A stretch of DNA of 64,000 nt from an uncultured bacterium (lineage in GTDB: Bacteria; Krumholzibacteriota; Krumholzibacteriia; LZORAL124-64-63). The DNA is taken from assembly GCA_963727525.1 (NCBI GenBank), contig CAVSGO010000007.1:512001-576000 (forward strand). Direction: 5' to 3'. The position numbers and the translations under genes are program-made. The notes below the pieces were generated by a model. The model saw only the letters and a program-made list of their open reading frames with translations. It had not been told where the DNA came from and made no database searches. Positions 53,860 to 60,386 of this stretch are shown in pieces (within the stretch, counting starts at the first letter, position 1; each line of letters opens with the position of its first letter).

Positions 53860-54768
53860 GTGGCGATCCTGGTCGTGGGTTCAGTGGCATACGATACGGT
53901 GGAGACCCCGCGTGAAAAGCGCGAACGGCAGCTCGGCGGCAGTGCGAGTTTTTTCAGCCTCGCGGCGGGTGCCGACGCAGGCGTGCGAGTGGTGGCCGTG
54001 GTCGGTGACGACTTCCGCGAGGAGCATCTCGCGTTGCTGCGCGACCACGGCGTGGATATCGCCGGGATCGCCCGCGCTCACGGCCCCAGCTTCCACTGGT
54101 CGGGCCGCTACCACCTCGACTTCATCGAGCGCGACACGTTGCTCACCGAGCTCGGCGTGTTCGCAGGATTCAAGCCGGAGATCCCCGCTGCCTGGCGCGA
54201 GTCCGAGTACCTCTTCCTCGCCAACATCCATCCGACACTCCAGGCGGAGGTGCTCGCCGGGGTGGCCCCGCCGCGCCTCGTGGTGCTGGACACGATGAAC
54301 CTCTGGATCGAAACGACACGCACCGAACTGCTCGACGTATTGCGCAAGGTCGACGTGCTGCTGGTCAACGACTCCGAGGCCAAGCTGCTCACCGGGGAGG
54401 CGAGCCTCGTGCGCGCTGCCGCGGCGATTCGCGATCTCGGTCCCGCGCGGGTCGTGATCAAGAAGGGAGAGCACGGTGCTCTCTACTTCGGCGGAACGTC
54501 ACGCCTCGCGGTGCCGGCTCTGCTCCTGCCCGAGGTCGTCGACCCCACCGGCGCCGGCGACAGCTTTGCCGGCGGGTTCGTGGCCAGCCTCGCCGCGAGG
54601 GGTGTCGGTCGCGAAGCCAGTGACGACGCCTTCCGGCAGGCGATGATCGACGGGACCGTGGCTGCCAGCTTCTGTCCGGAGGCATTCAGTGTCGACGGAC
54701 TGCTGCGCCGCACCCCGAGCGACGTGGCCGGGCGCCGCGAGTGCTTGCTGAATATGATGGTTCCTTAG
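53860..54768 (+). CDS. PfkB-family carbohydrate/nucleoside kinase
   Basis: VVGSVAYDTVETP, LGGSA, DTMNLWI, VNDSEA, KKGEHG, DPTGAGDSFAGG. Confidence 0.93.
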   Translation: MAILVVGSVAYDTVETPREKRERQLGGSASFFSLAAGADAGVRVVAVVGDDFREEHLALLRDHGVDIAGIARAHGPSFHWSGRYHLDFIERDTLLTELGVFAGFKPEIPAAWRESEYLFLANIHPTLQAEVLAGVAPPRLVVLDTMNLWIETTRTELLDVLRKVDVLLVNDSEAKLLTGEASLVRAAAAIRDLGPARVVIKKGEHGALYFGGTSRLAVPALLLPEVVDPTGAGDSFAGGFVASLAARGVGREASDDAFRQAMIDGTVAASFCPEAFSVDGLLRRTPSDVAGRRECLLNMMVP

Positions 54769-54893
54769 TTCGGGAGACGACGAATTTTCATTTTCCATCT
54801 CATCTCATAAGCGTTTATAATAAAGCATCTTATCCTTCTTGTGTTGTCCCGTATGTCGGAGTATGCTTTGTCCGTACTCCGGACTGATCGGCA

Positions 54894-54909
54894 TGGCGCG
54901 AGGCTCGCT
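54894..54909 (+). promoter_or_regulatory. Candidate sigma54 promoter with upstream AT-rich tract and inverted repeat
   Basis: TGGCGCGAGGCTCGCT: GG 54895-96, N10, GC 54907-08. AT-rich 54783-54840. GGAGTA..TACTCC inverted repeat at 54858-54880. Confidence 0.55.
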
Positions 54910-54932
54910 ATCGGCACGAAGGAGACCCACCC

Positions 54933-55742
54933 TTGGAATGGCAACCCGACGAAAGCTCCGACTGGATCCACGACGCGGAACGTTGGATCGCGAAGATCAA
55001 GGATGTACTGCAGTGCAAGGTCGAGGTCGATCGTGATGGCGAGATCCAGGGCGTTCACGTTGTGGCCCGCCAGGGCCGTGACCCACGTCTCATCGTCCGC
55101 GACGTCGAGGGGCTCCTGAAGGCCCGGCTCGGTATCGCGGTGTTCTACAAGAAGATCGGCGTGGTGCAGGTCGTGGAGACCGACGCGCCGCAACCGGCCA
55201 GCCCCCAGACGCCCGAGGCGCCTGCCGCTGTGGCGGCCGAGCCGGACGTGGTGGAACCCGATGTGGCCGAGGACGACGACGACGATGACGTCCAGGACTT
55301 CGAGACCGACGCCATTCTCCTGGCGGAGGAACTCGCTCCCCGCATCAAGTGTGTCGGGGTGGGGTTGATGAGCACCGAGTCCGTGATTCGCGCCGAGGTG
55401 CAACTTCAGGCTGCCGGCGCGGACGCGCGCGGGACCTGCGAGGGGCCGAATCGCAGCGCGAACGACATCGAACTGATCGCCACAGCGGCCCTCGACGCCG
55501 TGGGGCAGCTATTGGACGAATCCGTGAGCCTTAACCTCGCGGAGGTCAGGGTGGCGCCGCTCGGAGGCCACGACGTGGTTTTCGCGGCGGTCGAGTTGAT
55601 CGAGGGGCGACGCGCCGAGCGCCTGTTCGGCACTTGCCAGCCCCAGCAGAATCTGCATCAGGCGGTGGTCTTCGCCGTCCTTGATGCGCTCAATCGTCGG
55701 CTGGCTCTCATGGCCTTCAAGTCGCGAGAGGCCACTGGCTGA
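54933..55742 (+). CDS. Hypothetical protein; C-terminal domain resembles the LeuA (isopropylmalate synthase) allosteric fold
   Basis: AAGGAG SD and TTG start. N-domain (GVHVVA..PRLIVRDVEGLL), acidic linker, and C-domain AEVQL..GTCEG..ATAALDAV..LFGTC..AVVFAVLDALNRRL. Confidence 0.75.
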   Translation: MEWQPDESSDWIHDAERWIAKIKDVLQCKVEVDRDGEIQGVHVVARQGRDPRLIVRDVEGLLKARLGIAVFYKKIGVVQVVETDAPQPASPQTPEAPAAVAAEPDVVEPDVAEDDDDDDVQDFETDAILLAEELAPRIKCVGVGLMSTESVIRAEVQLQAAGADARGTCEGPNRSANDIELIATAALDAVGQLLDESVSLNLAEVRVAPLGGHDVVFAAVELIEGRRAERLFGTCQPQQNLHQAVVFAVLDALNRRLALMAFKSREATG

Positions 55743-55751
55743 AACGGAGAC

Positions 55752-55938
55752 GGGAACCGGGACCGGGTGTCGATTACCACAGAGCGGAGTTGATGAGTGG
55801 AGCGGCCTTCTGCTGTCTAAGATCGCCCAAGATAGCAAGATCTAGTGCGACAGGAGGTGCCACGATGATCGAGTGGGTGCTGGATATGCTCACGAAGTGG
55901 GAGTGGTAATTTGACATCTCAGGTTCCGGTTCCCTTTT
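55752..55938 (+). other. Long-range inverted repeat (29 bp including G-U pairs) enclosing the small ORF and followed by TTTT
   Basis: GGGAACCGGGACC-GGGTGTCGA-TTACCAC (55752-55780) pairs with GTGGTAA-t-TTGACATCT-ca-GGTTCCGGTTCCC (55903-55934). Confidence 0.75.
55865..55909 (+). CDS. Small 14-aa Trp-rich peptide MIEWVLDMLTKWEW
   Basis: Near-perfect SD AGGAGGT at 55852-55858, 6 nt before ATG. ATG ATC GAG TGG GTG CTG GAT ATG CTC ACG AAG TGG GAG TGG TAA. Every sense codon ends in G/C except one. Confidence 0.65.
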   Translation: MIEWVLDMLTKWEW

Positions 55939-56063
55939 GTGATGTTCTCGCCTAAGTTGTATCCAAGAATGCGGTGCATGGGGATCAAGATAACTCAAGT
56001 CTTGTGGCCCGGCGGGCGATACTCTTCCTAGGGGCAGCCGACCATGGCGGGAAGGGCGGACAG

Positions 56064-57398
56064 GTGACCACGACGCGTCAAGCACGGCGCTGGCTTTTCG
56101 CTCCCACCTACTGGGTTTTCGTGCTTGGTGGCGCGCTTTTCCTCGTCTACTTGATTCAGCACCACGCACCCCCGCATCCGCAGTGGGGCGCGATCCTCGC
56201 GCTCTTCGCCTTCCTACTCGCAGCCGATACCAAGCTAGCGGCCTCCCAGGTCTCGGGCGGCCGCGTCATGTCGTCCAAGTGCATCGTGCTCGCAGTGATT
56301 GCGCTCTTCGGCCCCGCGGCGGCGGCGTGCATGGAGGCGGTGTCGGCCCTGTTGCGAGGGCTCATCCAGCGACGTACGACCCCCCGCAAGGCCATATTCA
56401 ATTCTGCGATGCTCGCGTCGGCGGCAGGGGCGGCCGGTCTGGTCTATGGCATCCTGCCGTTCAGCGACAACTACGCGTCGCCGCTCATCGTGCTGCCGCT
56501 CGCCGGCGCCATGGTCGTGCATTCCGTGGTGAATTCGGCCATGCTGGGCGTGATCATCAGCCTCGACGCCGACATGCCCTTGCAACGCGTCTACCGGAAC
56601 AGCTTCTTCACGGCCAAGCTGCGCGTACTGCTGGACCTGCCATTCGCCGTGATGATCGCACTGCTGTATCTCCAGGGCGGAGCCTGGACGCTGGTGCTCT
56701 TCCTTTTCCCGGTGCTTGCGCTCTACCAGAGCGACCGCCTCTACCAGCGCAACAAGGAAGCCCACATCAACAGCATTGCCGCACTGACCACGGCCCTCGA
56801 GGCAGACGAACCCTACACGCATGGACACAGCTACCGGGTGGCGAAGTTGGCGGTGACCATCGGCGGTTCCATGAACATGAACGACCGCGACCTCGAGACG
56901 CTCGAGTACGGTGGTCTGCTGCACGACATTGGCAAGATCGCGATCAGCAACGAGATCATCTGCAAGCCGGGCCGCTTGACGGAGAGCGAGTTCGAGGTCA
57001 TCAAGACCCACGCCACGATCGGCGCCGACATCGTCGAGCAGATCAAGTTCCTGGCCAAGGCCACCGACCTGATCCGCCACCATCACGAGCGCCCGGATGG
57101 CCGCGGCTACCCGCACGGGCTCAAACGCGACGAGATCTCGCTGGGCTGCGCCATCCTCAACGTCTGCGACGCCTTCGATGCCATGACCACGGACCGGCCC
57201 TACCGCAAGGCCCTGAGCGTCGAGAAGGCCATGGAGGAACTCGTACGGCACAAGGGCTCGCAGTTCGACGATAGGGTTGTCGACATCATGCTCAAGCTCT
57301 ATCATCAGGGCGAGTTCGACGACATGCGAGAGATGCGGACCAAGGATATGCCCTTTCCGACGGACGTGACGCGGACGCCGCAACGGCTGGTCTCCTGA
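56064..57398 (+). CDS. Membrane-anchored HD-GYP cyclic-dinucleotide phosphodiesterase
   Basis: About 6-7 hydrophobic segments, then PYTHGHSYRVA, LLHDIGKI, KPGRLT, HHHERPDGRGYPHGL, DAFDAMTTDRPYR. GTG start at 56064 is preferred over 55974. Confidence 0.92.
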   Translation: MTTTRQARRWLFAPTYWVFVLGGALFLVYLIQHHAPPHPQWGAILALFAFLLAADTKLAASQVSGGRVMSSKCIVLAVIALFGPAAAACMEAVSALLRGLIQRRTTPRKAIFNSAMLASAAGAAGLVYGILPFSDNYASPLIVLPLAGAMVVHSVVNSAMLGVIISLDADMPLQRVYRNSFFTAKLRVLLDLPFAVMIALLYLQGGAWTLVLFLFPVLALYQSDRLYQRNKEAHINSIAALTTALEADEPYTHGHSYRVAKLAVTIGGSMNMNDRDLETLEYGGLLHDIGKIAISNEIICKPGRLTESEFEVIKTHATIGADIVEQIKFLAKATDLIRHHHERPDGRGYPHGLKRDEISLGCAILNVCDAFDAMTTDRPYRKALSVEKAMEELVRHKGSQFDDRVVDIMLKLYHQGEFDDMREMRTKDMPFPTDVTRTPQRLVS

Positions 57399-57477
57399 CC
57401 GTTGCCGGCCGAACCGCCCCCGACCCCGATTCGCGATGAACCCGGACGAACGAGGATCCGATGCAAGCGGTGAACCG

Positions 57478-58491
57478 ATGAAGTATGCCGAGAGCGGTGT
57501 GAACATCGACGTCGCGACGCGCGCGCTGGCGCGTGCGAAGTCGGCTATTCGCAGCACGTGGGATCCGCGGGTCAAGAGCGACGTGGGAGCTTTCGGCGGG
57601 CTCTACCAGCCGGCTCCCGGTGAACCGTATCTCGTGGCCAGCGTGGACGGCGTGGGCACCAAGGTGAAGATCGCGGCGCAGGTCGGACGCTATGACACGG
57701 TGGGGCAGGACCTGGTGAATCACTGTGTCGACGATATCCTCGTGCAGGGTGCGGAGCCGCTCTTCTTCCTCGATTACTTCGCCGCCGGCGTCCTCGAGGA
57801 GGACGTGCTACCGGCGGTGATCGAGGGCCTGGCCGCCGCCTGCCGCGAGAATGGATGCGCGCTCCTGGGCGGTGAGACCGCGGAGATGCCCGGCGTGTAC
57901 GCGCGCGGCGACTTCGACCTCGCCGGCGCCATCCTGGGCCGCGTTCAGCCGCAGGACGTGCTCGACGGATCTCGGTTGCGGGCCGGTGATCGTATCTGGG
58001 GCATGGCGTCCACCGGACTGCACACCAATGGCTACTCGCTCGCCCGCCGCGTGCTGCTGGAGCGAGCCGGGCTGGCGCTCGATGCCACCCCGGCGGGCCT
58101 GGATGGGTCCCTGGCCGACGCGCTCCTCGCCGTGCACCGCAGCTACCTGCAACCGGTGCGGGCTCTCTGGGACACCGCGGGCCGCGAGGCCGTGCATGGC
58201 CTCGCCCATATCACGGGCGGCGGGTTCTACGATAATGTGCCGCGCATCGTCCCCGACGGGCTCTGCGCGGTCATCGACACCACCGCCTGGTCGGTGCCGC
58301 CGCTCTTCCGCCTCATTGCCGACCTTGGCGAGGTGCCGCCACAAGAGATGTACCGCGTGCTCAACATGGGCGTGGGACTGTGCATGGTGCTCCCGCCCAC
58401 CGTTGATCCGGCCGAGGCCGGCGTGATCGCCTGGCCAATCGGCGAGGTCGTCGCGGGCGACGAGAAGGTCCGCGTGATTCTCGGGCGGTGA
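57478..58491 (+). CDS. purM: Phosphoribosylformylglycinamidine cyclo-ligase
   Basis: YAESGVNID, GAFGGL, DGVGTK, GAEPLFFLDY, GGETAEMPG, STGLHTNGYSL, AHITGGG, LNMGVG. Confidence 0.97.
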   Translation: MKYAESGVNIDVATRALARAKSAIRSTWDPRVKSDVGAFGGLYQPAPGEPYLVASVDGVGTKVKIAAQVGRYDTVGQDLVNHCVDDILVQGAEPLFFLDYFAAGVLEEDVLPAVIEGLAAACRENGCALLGGETAEMPGVYARGDFDLAGAILGRVQPQDVLDGSRLRAGDRIWGMASTGLHTNGYSLARRVLLERAGLALDATPAGLDGSLADALLAVHRSYLQPVRALWDTAGREAVHGLAHITGGGFYDNVPRIVPDGLCAVIDTTAWSVPPLFRLIADLGEVPPQEMYRVLNMGVGLCMVLPPTVDPAEAGVIAWPIGEVVAGDEKVRVILGR

Positions 58492-58691: not shown

Positions 58692-60386
58692 ATGTCGGTC
58701 CCGCAAAATGCCTGTATCCGTTCGCGCTCGTTCGCGACTTTTGCCCTCCTCGTTTTCTTGGCGCTCGGATTGACGCTGGCCGCCTGCAGCGTCCAGGACA
58801 GTGCCCAGGATGCCCTCACCGGCCCGGAACGGATCCTGCCTGCCGGCGTGGCGATCACCGTGGCCGACGTCACCGCCCGCGGCCAGTACCCGGGGTTGGT
58901 GGCGAGTTGGAACCACGAGGGTGAGCGCTTCGACGCCCAGATCCAGTACCGGTGGATACCCTCGCCATCGAGTCCCGGTCATTCCGTTGGCTGGACCGTG
59001 GCGCGCGAGTTCAGCGGCGTTTACCAGGAGATCGGCAGCCTGGTGACGTCCGTGCCGTATATGGCGTTTCCCGGCGACCGCGTCGAGGCGCGGCTCTACC
59101 TGAAACAGCCCGGTGGCGAGGCGTTTCTCGCGGTGGAGTCGACCTATGACGTACCAGGTCTGCCGCCACTGCAGACGTCCGCCATGGCGCCGCCAGGCGA
59201 CGATGGCGCCCTCAGCTTCAACATGTCTTGCTACTGGTTCAACGACACCAGCGCGCCTCTACCACCTGCGAGCGACTTCGCCGGCATGGGGACCGCGATG
59301 GCGATGCACAACGTCGGTGACCACGCGTACTCCATCACGTCGTCCGGCGAGTTCGCAAACCTGCTGCAGGACGTGCGTGGTGGCGGCACCCCGCTCGTCT
59401 GGCTGCAATACATGATGTATCACGGCATCCTCAAGAGTGCCGACCAGGCTCCGGTGAACTCGATCCCGCACCGGCTCTATCTGGCCATGTGCGGCTCCGA
59501 TGGCACGGAGACGTTTCCGATGATCGCCAAGGACACGGCGGGCCAGCCGCTCGACGGTTGCCCCTCGTTCTGTCAGGAATGGGAAGCGAATCCCCTGGCG
59601 CCGGGCTTCATCGACACCATGGTCACGGTCTACGCGGAGGAACACGTGCGCGGCGGTCTGGCCACTTTCCCGTACGTCGGCGTGCTGGTCGACTACCTCG
59701 AGGCGAACTGGTACGGCTGGCGCTGTGCCGATGGTCACTGCGACGAAGTCGTCGACCTCGACCAGGACGGCATCCCCTTCGTGGACGACCCCGACGAGGC
59801 CGATGCCTTGCAGGAAGCTCACCACGTATTTCTGCGCCGATTGCGGGAGGTGATGGACCACGTCCGTGGCGACGACACCTTCATCATCGTCGGCAACGGC
59901 GACATGGCGCGCCATGCCGGCGGCGCCGAGTACCTGGATGGCGAACTGGTCGAGCGCATGGATCACTACGGCTGGTACGAGCGCAGCTGGATCGGCCTCA
60001 AGAGGGCGTTGCTCGACATGTCCGGACAGTTCGTCAACGCGAGGTTGCCGTACGGGCTGATCTTTGCCGGCGTCGACGCATACAACGACATGCGCCAAGT
60101 GCTGGCGATCATCGGCGGCGGCGGCCGCGGTCGCGCCTGCTATCCCGACGACGACAACTGGCTCGACCATCCCAATGTATGTCCCGACCCATCGAGCGTC
60201 GATCTGGGCGCCGTCCTCGACGTTGCTGTGGACGAGGCCACGACGACTATCACCGCCACGTGCGAGAACGGGTGGGCGGCGCTGGAGTGGGACGCCAGCT
60301 ATCCGTGGGCCTACATCGCGGTGCAGACGAACCGGGCGAGGCCCGACACGGTGCTCATCGGTGGCGGCTGGGCGCGGCAAGATTGA
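58692..60386 (+). CDS. Lipoprotein with a putative glycoside-hydrolase-like TIM-barrel domain
   Basis: Lipobox LAAC. GVLVDY..VDLDQDG..FLRRLRE..IIVGNG..LDGELVE pattern is reminiscent of hypothetical GH (GHL15-like) proteins. Family assignment is tentative. Confidence 0.6.
   Translation: MSVPQNACIRSRSFATFALLVFLALGLTLAACSVQDSAQDALTGPERILPAGVAITVADVTARGQYPGLVASWNHEGERFDAQIQYRWIPSPSSPGHSVGWTVAREFSGVYQEIGSLVTSVPYMAFPGDRVEARLYLKQPGGEAFLAVESTYDVPGLPPLQTSAMAPPGDDGALSFNMSCYWFNDTSAPLPPASDFAGMGTAMAMHNVGDHAYSITSSGEFANLLQDVRGGGTPLVWLQYMMYHGILKSADQAPVNSIPHRLYLAMCGSDGTETFPMIAKDTAGQPLDGCPSFCQEWEANPLAPGFIDTMVTVYAEEHVRGGLATFPYVGVLVDYLEANWYGWRCADGHCDEVVDLDQDGIPFVDDPDEADALQEAHHVFLRRLREVMDHVRGDDTFIIVGNGDMARHAGGAEYLDGELVERMDHYGWYERSWIGLKRALLDMSGQFVNARLPYGLIFAGVDAYNDMRQVLAIIGGGGRGRACYPDDDNWLDHPNVCPDPSSVDLGAVLDVAVDEATTTITATCENGWAALEWDASYPWAYIAVQTNRARPDTVLIGGGWARQD

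Follow-up and report, generated by a model that had tools for sequence, protein, structure and literature searches.

We analysed a group of genes situated between pfkB and purM in the genome of an uncultured bacterium of the class Krumholzibacteriia (phylum Krumholzibacteriota). The DNA under study, called here the window, is a stretch of 64,000 nucleotides (nt) (NCBI GenBank assembly GCA_963727525.1, contig CAVSGO010000007.1, positions 512,001 to 576,000 of the forward strand); all coordinates are those of the window. On its plus strand pfkB is followed by orf1, by an open reading frame (ORF) of 14 codons (the mini-ORF), by a gene for a multi-helix protein with an HD-GYP domain and by purM (Table 1). 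The sequence-only reading, an earlier note on the same DNA, had placed in the pfkB-purM interval a hypothetical two-domain protein, a tiny ORF with a strong Shine-Dalgarno (SD) sequence and a multi-helix HD-GYP protein, and all of them are present; the AT-rich region that it had noticed before orf1 was seen as well (G+C content of 49% in positions 54769-54932 versus 67% in the window). As argued below, the mini-ORF may encode a micropeptide partner of the membrane sensor domain (MASE9-like) of the HD-GYP protein, a type of enzyme that hydrolyses cyclic di-GMP (c-di-GMP), and this peptide would be made from a folded leader RNA that gates its translation.

Table 1. Features of the pfkB-purM interval and of related loci (MFE, minimum free energy; P1, long-range stem of the leader RNA)
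Feature	Position or locus	Strand	Basis or remark
pfkB	53860-54768	+	gene upstream of orf1
Sigma-70-like promoter candidate for orf1, TTGTGT-N17-TATGCT	54839-54867	+	by eye, without statistics
Sigma-54-like site of the sequence-only reading, TGGCGCGAGGCTCGCT	54894-54909	+	10/12 consensus positions; judged a chance match
orf1, encodes a protein of 269 amino acids (aa)	54933-55742	+	no Pfam or NCBIfam family
5' arm of P1	55752-55780	+	MFE fold
Tandem GAGCGG-type purine repeats	55782-55805	+	conserved columns in two alignments
Anti-SD strand	55806-55819	+	pairs with 55850-55861 in MFE fold
SD sequence AGGAGGT of mini-ORF	55852-55858	+	GGAGGT invariant in 36/36 aligned elements
14-codon mini-ORF ending Lys-Trp-Glu-Trp-TAA	55865-55909	+	single copy in genome
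3' arm of P1, spans last two codons and stop; then TTTTGTG	55903-55934	+	MFE fold, covariation
HD-GYP gene, likeliest start GTG 56064	56064-57398	+	444 aa
MASE9-like membrane domain of HD-GYP protein	56064-56789	+	MASE9 16.8 bits, cut-off 24.3
HD-GYP catalytic domain	56790-57398	+	HD_5 E 1.7e-36; HD, HHE and GYP motifs
purM	57436-58491	+	gene after HD-GYP gene
Sigma-54-type elements before HD-GYP genes of other families	L093, L099, L102, L105, L107, L111	forward	families f3, f7, f8

The mini-ORF, whose stop codon is separated by 154 nt from the HD-GYP start, follows the presence of the HD-GYP gene closely. In 12 of 20 related loci orf1 is followed by an HD-GYP gene, and each of these carried a GGAGGT SD sequence with a 14-codon ORF; the mini-ORF was absent from each of the eight related loci in which purM directly succeeds orf1 and the HD-GYP gene is missing, and it turned up in no other locus or genome lacking that gene. 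With a strict DNA pattern, 28 copies turned up in 27 of the 208 class genomes, all of them in one family, labelled here f1, and the reversed control pattern gave none; the HD-GYP gene lay downstream of 27 copies, the remaining one being cut off by the end of its contig. Of 91 f1 genomes, 41 have the membrane domain of the HD-GYP protein. Fourteen f1 genomes with an HD-GYP gene fell outside the strict pattern: two of these loci were at contig ends, and the 12 with upstream DNA all carried a variant. Altogether, the mini-ORF was found in 39 of 39 testable f1 genomes having the HD-GYP gene, each time with 14 codons. The tiny ORF with its AGGAGGT sequence, picked out in the sequence-only reading, is thus real: it occurs far above chance and is conserved in relatives. 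One genome carries a second mini-ORF and HD-GYP copy, at a contig end and with the gene before it out of view (locus L025, G006:C8:92706-94293).

The pattern of variation is that of a coding sequence. The 35 distinct DNA versions of the mini-ORF contain no indels and are surrounded by indel-rich flanks; entropies at the first, second and third codon positions are 0.72, 0.57 and 1.23, so that third positions are about twice as variable as the others, and Glu13 and Trp14 are invariant. As to stop codons, we counted 20 TAA, 15 TAG and no TGA; among 2193 long ORFs of the window's genome TGA makes up 59% and TAA 5.5% of stops. The same genome has 16 long ORFs ending in a Trp codon, with TAG in 11, TGA in 4 and TAA in one case; UGG-UGA may be avoided genome-wide. 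The peptide of the window has about eight hydrophobic residues in a row and is too short to span a membrane.

Furthermore, the mini-ORF is enclosed in a strongly folded RNA. The minimum free energy of positions 55740-55945 is -84.2 kcal/mol (z = -4.79). Its long-range stem, P1, was seen in the MFE folds of all 39 f1 elements and has a 12-pair core, in which nine pairs show two-sided changes across 36 aligned elements; 94.8% of the core cells are paired, versus 89.8 +/- 0.5% in shuffled sets (none of 500 reached 94.8%), and with the partner strand slid the value falls to 30-50%. Inside P1 there are hairpins; the RNA also has a hairpin with AGCGG in its loop. At least four of the five bases of GGAGG are paired in the MFE folds of 34 of 39 f1 elements, that is, the SD sequence is masked. 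Rfam 15 had no match at E <=10 in positions 54700-56200.

A covariance model of the element, built from one family, matched 41 of 151 genomes of the class: 31 of 66 in f1 and the window's genome, seven of 10 in family f6, two of 11 in family f5 and none of 63 in other families. There was one match per genome, except for two in G006, and among the matches listed, each adjoins the HD-GYP match of its genome where one was listed. The model missed the elements of other phyla described below; in that search it matched only genome G059 of f6, apart from two weak matches located outside the elements (E 0.048 and 0.91). CsrA is encoded in the window's genome and was considered as a required reader of the GGA-containing repeats; this candidate was dropped, as one genus (g32) has the RNA element in three of five genomes and CsrA in none of the five. 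A TRAP/HutP-like reading of the GAG repeats was considered as well. Between P1 and the HD-GYP start (positions 55957-56021 in the window, and the corresponding stretch of relatives) we noticed by eye a sigma-70-like pair, TTGCWT-N17-TARTCT, in one clade and a CTCAAG ... GCCGAT(A) box in most f1 loci.

The HD-GYP protein is equal in length to database protein P0121. Its HD_5 domain (PF13487) scored 126 bits versus a curated cut-off of 27.2, and the HD motif at residue 287 and the HHExxDGxGYP motif, with HHE at 340 and GYP at 348, are invariant in an alignment (A4); the HD and GYP motifs were correctly called intact in the sequence-only reading. In its sensor part about eight helices are predicted within residues 2-245, two of them short, with which a hydropathy scan agrees (model helices 2-34, 41-63, 72-82, 84-102, 107-130, 140-169, 173-188, 191-205 and 208-245). 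PF20972 (MASE9) was recorded for 16 of 40 homologues, the window's own protein staying under the cut-off; one homologue from the Thermincola phylum (see below) scored 37.8 bits. Judging by sequence and model, the sensor domain is MASE9-like, probably a divergent MASE9. MASE9 is described with about eight membrane segments, two of them short, and has been proposed to bind a ligand within the membrane, a ligand that passages of the same source leave unnamed (bioRxiv 10.1101/2021.11.05.467447). The polytopic MASE9-like domain joined to HD-GYP is shared with the phosphodiesterases of the T. maritima TM1467 type and S. venezuelae HdgA; an upstream micro-ORF, a leader RNA and a LeuA-fold partner, none of them mentioned in those passages (bioRxiv 10.1101/2021.11.05.467447), would set the present system apart.

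One could think of the mini-ORF as a split-off first MASE9 helix; we rejected this, given that the peptides had no Pfam match at E <=1 and the N-terminus of the protein is not short. At one locus (L027, G009:C4:123124-126182) the HD-GYP match is spread over three frames (query residues 9-72, 74-171 and 165-441) with the mini-ORF intact; the HD-GYP gene there is either frameshifted or affected by assembly errors.

In the class as a whole, 128 of 181 genomes have the membrane domain, and each of the 20 loci fetched from other families has orf1 upstream of it. As a rule, members of the class have orf1 followed by the HD-GYP gene; the spacer between them varies with the family. Homologous mini-ORFs, of 11, 15, 19 or 20 codons, are present in 10 of 11 loci of f5 and in nine of nine of f6, with the HD-GYP start 18-72 nt past the mini-ORF; all end in Trp-stop, which is invariant in 58 Krumholzibacteriota genomes. 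In families f3, f7 and f8, six of eight loci have a sigma-54-type element, TGGCAT-N5-NTGCW, in the spacer, on the forward strand only and some 100-150 nt ahead of the start of the HD-GYP gene; no such element was found in 12 loci of f4, f5, f6 and f9. These three families seem to drive the HD-GYP gene from a sigma-54 promoter in place of the mini-ORF leader. In five loci of f4 and f9, three spacers are shorter than 100 nt and two (G200 and G207) measure about 270 nt; neither a mini-ORF nor the sigma-54-type element was found in these five.

A scan of species genomes brought up orf1 upstream of a full-length MASE9-HD-GYP gene in records of Thermincola, Firmicutes, Eubacteriales and Armatimonadota, eight loci in all. 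A small ORF lies between the two genes in each of the eight, and their spacers contain 16 GAGCGG/AGCGRA motifs versus 1.6 expected. From the phylum to which the Thermincola genome belongs, for brevity the Thermincola phylum, 401 genomes were sampled: orf1 was present in 170 and the MASE9 domain in 131. Among the 30 best-scoring MASE9 loci of this phylum, an SD-led peptide gene precedes the MASE9 gene by 10-80 nt in 27, and orf1 likewise lies upstream in 27. Viewed from orf1, 18 of 19 loci with MASE9/HD-GYP downstream have the peptide, as do none of 10 loci without it, of which three end 160-400 nt past orf1. The conserved gene pairing, the SD sequence and the short Trp-ended ORF, for which a search among homologues had been suggested in the sequence-only reading, are therefore found both in relatives and in another phylum.

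The 44 distinct peptides of the Thermincola phylum have 23-31 aa, mostly 24-25. Their basic N-terminus leads into a hydrophobic helix, about 16 residues long and closing with Leu-Ala-Gly-Gly-Ala, after which comes a short tail; Trp is the terminal residue in 18 peptides and one of the last three residues in 15. Compared with them, the peptides of Krumholzibacteriota seem to be cut short at the N-terminus, with the Gly ... Lys/Arg ... Trp end retained. Longer versions of the peptide with an upstream start were seen at two loci; they looked artificial and were not used. Single folds enclosed the ORF in a long-range stem in 10 of 11 Thermincola-phylum loci; the duplex-versus-shuffle test of that stem was weak (z from -0.1 to -5.3), and MAFFT/RNAalifold on 10 elements of the phylum gave no structure, the alignment being poor. 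The Armatimonadota loci have the same gene order and GAGCGG-type repeats, but their small ORFs are of other peptide types: five loci (L162, L163, L182, L186 and L196) carry such ORFs, all preceded by the repeats, either signal-peptide-like with 44-45 aa or 25-29 aa long and bearing a motif of the Asn/Ser-Gly-Cys ... His-Phe-Phe-Pro type. In nine loci of other phyla the only Rfam 15 match was cspA, situated elsewhere in those loci.

The protein encoded by orf1, present in 39 of 41 related genomes, had no match in Pfam or NCBIfam, the sequence profile of the LeuA allosteric domain (PF08502) included. Its AlphaFold2 model (mean pLDDT, the predicted local distance difference test, of 85) has an N-terminal alpha-beta-beta-alpha-beta domain, an acidic disordered linker and a C-terminal (beta-beta-beta-alpha)x2 domain, whose secondary structure covers residues 139-257. 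The best Foldseek matches were the regulatory domains of M. tuberculosis LeuA (E 2e-4 over about 126 columns) and of LiCMS, with E values for the two from 2e-4 to 4.5e-3 and probability 1.00; the N-terminal domain loosely resembles ring-building motifs and double-stranded RNA-binding domains. The fold search thus bears out the 'LeuA-fold-like' guess of the sequence-only reading. The C-terminal domain shares its (beta-beta-beta-alpha)x2 fold with the allosteric domain of LeuA and citramalate synthase (best PDB entries 3fig, 1sr9, 3f6g and 3f6h); in contrast to these enzymes the orf1 protein has no catalytic TIM barrel, and sequence identity is 11-18%. PF08502 appeared below threshold in two of five orf1 homologues from the Thermincola phylum (E 0.08 and 0.15), and an Atlas neighbour cluster bears an automatic LeuA allosteric/dimerisation name.

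A predicted co-fold of the orf1 protein with the HD-GYP protein yielded no verdict (score 0.00, controls not being folded). A role of the orf1 protein as RNA-binding factor of the leader was weakened by the five families that keep orf1 without the RNA element. In the Thermincola phylum secA, not the module, comes after orf1 at three loci (L225, L230 and L239); at three others (L207, L220 and L236) a cold-shock gene lies upstream of orf1 (Rfam cspA thermoregulator, 45-67 bits, below the gathering score). Downstream of purM the window has a 564-aa ORF (58692-60386, plus strand) with no Pfam family at E <=0.01.

One claim of the sequence-only reading, a -24/-12 (sigma-54) motif before orf1, did not hold; rpoN itself is present in the window's genome. 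The window contains 11 matches to TGGCACG-N4-TTGCW with up to two mismatches, where 9.8 +/- 3.2 are expected, and in the pfkB-orf1 spacers at 27 relatives' loci no comparable site was found at that place (best scores 4-9 of 12, scattered); the match is at chance level and is not kept in relatives. Judged by eye, hexamers of the form TTGTCA-N17-TATnAT recur in the pfkB-orf1 spacers of several relatives and suggest a candidate promoter of sigma-70-like type; an automated promoter scan chose a different site, 54792-54821.

Our preferred reading, the probability of which we would put at about 0.5, is that the mini-ORF encodes a genuine micropeptide that partners the MASE9 sensor and whose translation is gated by its leader RNA. 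The mini-ORF would then be a translated micro-gene, the Krumholzibacteriota member, reduced in length, of a family of peptides with 11-31 aa, the traits of which are a hydrophobic stretch, Gly or Gly-Gly, then Lys/Arg and usually Trp at or near the C-terminus. The peptide gene consistently lies 10-250 nt upstream of a MASE9-type HD-GYP gene. Its product would most likely be an in-membrane or interface partner of MASE9, as subunit or modulator, and so would tune hydrolysis of c-di-GMP; this role is favoured because the relatives of the peptide are helix-like and resemble single-pass micro-proteins. In its ground state the leader RNA would hide the SD sequence and start codon and close P1 over the stop codon, so that some signal would have to open it and translating ribosomes would have to open both the masked SD region and P1. 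The LeuA-allosteric-fold protein often joins the two as a third component and may sense amino acids in the cytoplasm.

Several observations speak against such a partner. The 14-aa peptide of the window and the 11-aa peptides of one f6 genus lack the basic N-terminus and the membrane-crossing helix; with the 24-25-aa forms they have only the C-terminal part in common, and this shared part is just what a nascent-chain mechanism acting in cis would need. A C-terminal Trp is not universal either, as 11 of the 44 Thermincola-phylum tails have no Trp. In five Krumholzibacteriota families orf1 and the HD-GYP gene are retained but the mini-ORF is absent, so that the enzyme must be able to function in its absence. 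Finally, embedding of the ORF in an elaborate RNA structure fits a regulatory leader.

Since the RNA around the ORF has a conserved structure in which the SD sequence is masked, a cis-regulatory role is a serious rival, indeed the main one, even if we consider it rather unlikely. Ribosomes translating the mini-ORF, perhaps pausing or arrested at its Trp-stop end, would open P1 and the masked region and so set transcriptional read-through into the HD-GYP gene or its translation, while the released peptide would have no function. The layout of the element is suited to this: the stop and the last codons are inside P1, the core of which starts 14-22 nt past the stop in 38 of 39 elements (in the other one an anchor was misplaced), and both the SD sequence and the AUG are masked. 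In f5, f6 and the Thermincola phylum the HD-GYP start comes just 10-80 nt past the mini-ORF stop, and no SD sequence was seen by eye before the HD-GYP start in six f6 loci; in the window that start is 154 nt downstream, however, and the sigma-70-like hexamers noticed by eye in one clade lie in between. The invariant Trp-stop agrees with a cis role, as do changes of length (11-20 aa) that are N-terminal and leave the C-terminus intact, and the same spacer of sister families holds another control device, the sigma-54-type promoter. Of 36 distinct elements, 13 have a U-rich tail behind P1 and 23 do not, and an interpretation of P1 as an intrinsic terminator was set aside for this reason.

Known leader peptides offer a partial parallel. 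TnaC is a termination-stage arrest peptide with a UGA stop. The 14-aa PepNL, described for E. coli, arrests termination, and the ribosome at its UGA stop, which is read by RF2, controls the downstream gene (PMC11890864). Both share with the mini-ORF a very short upstream ORF the sequence of which matters. The mini-ORF, though, ends in TAA or TAG and never in TGA, despite the prevalence of TGA in the genome, and its own SD sequence is masked; among its relatives, those of 24-25 aa still have a positively charged N-terminus and a core resembling a membrane helix, neither of which a leader staying in the ribosomal tunnel would need. The partner role on MASE9 and the cis role could also be jointly true.

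It is improbable, in our estimate, that the 24-25-aa forms are precursors of an exported signal, with the C-terminal tail released outside and sensed by MASE9 in an autocrine or quorum fashion. Their build recalls such precursors (basic N-terminus, hydrophobic core, Ala-Gly-Gly-Ala, then a tail of 3-8 residues), and there is a sub-threshold resemblance to signal-bearing peptides of NCBIfam (NprX, E 0.069; LptM, E 0.11). These matches are far under the cut-offs, though; the Krumholzibacteriota forms of 11-20 aa have no signal-like N-terminus, and no conserved exporter or processing gene stands beside the module in the loci examined.

The mRNAs of hok and aapA1 are locked by long-range 5'-3' pairing with a masked SD sequence, and the long-range stem around a small hydrophobic ORF with a paired, yet strong, SD sequence recalls them; even so, it is hard to believe that the mini-ORF is a type I toxin-like element with a small hydrophobic toxic peptide, as it is single-copy, keeps one syntenic slot across divergence at the level of families and phyla and co-occurs strictly with the gene of one signalling enzyme. 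No antisense gene was seen, none having been searched for, and we know of no type I toxin as short as 11-14 aa. No more credible is an ORF arising by accident, and left untranslated, in a structured non-coding RNA (a riboswitch or protein-binding leader): P1, the GAGCGG repeats and the AGCGG-loop hairpin are no less conserved across phyla than the peptide, but the codon-position pattern, the fixed frame and length, the conservative amino-acid replacements, the invariant SD sequence at the right distance and the peptide homology across phyla despite DNA divergence all indicate a coding function.

With regard to the favoured micropeptide partner of MASE9, the closest known kinds are the MgrB-PhoQ pair and PepNL; neither fits fully. 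MgrB is reported as a 47-aa membrane protein inhibiting PhoQ (PMC8404706, PMC2789325). The present system resembles MgrB-PhoQ and SafA-PhoQ in that a very small hydrophobic protein has a genetic link to a sensor in the membrane, the membrane domain of which is its proposed target. In the present case, however, the partner is a c-di-GMP phosphodiesterase and not a kinase, and the peptide, of 11-31 aa, is encoded directly upstream, probably in the same mRNA and inside a conserved RNA fold; moreover, the window's 14-mer cannot span the membrane, for which the helix of the 23-31-aa relatives is long enough. We found no description of the module in the literature on HD-GYP leader peptides, c-di-GMP small proteins, Krumholzibacteriota and MASE9 (supplements not included).

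One could speculate further that the leader is a new sensor RNA, riboswitch-like or read by a protein at the GAGCGG repeats, that times production of the micropeptide; that the micropeptide is an in-membrane allosteric ligand of MASE9; and that the LeuA-fold protein adds an amino-acid signal. We think this combination unlikely, if less so than export. If it were true, the genes would form a self-contained c-di-GMP module with three inputs, common to at least three phyla, in which a single ORF acts in cis, by opening P1, as well as in trans, on the sensor.

MASE-type domains are common as inputs of c-di-GMP enzymes, and a peptide whose gene is strictly linked to that of the enzyme is a testable candidate for the input of MASE9. 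The module brings with it two further elements: a large structured RNA outside Rfam 15, and a widespread family of stand-alone proteins with the LeuA allosteric fold, which has no curated model in spite of its presence in more than two-fifths of the genomes sampled from the Thermincola phylum. More generally, ORFs of 11-31 codons, which are under the limits of gene calling, can persist across phyla.

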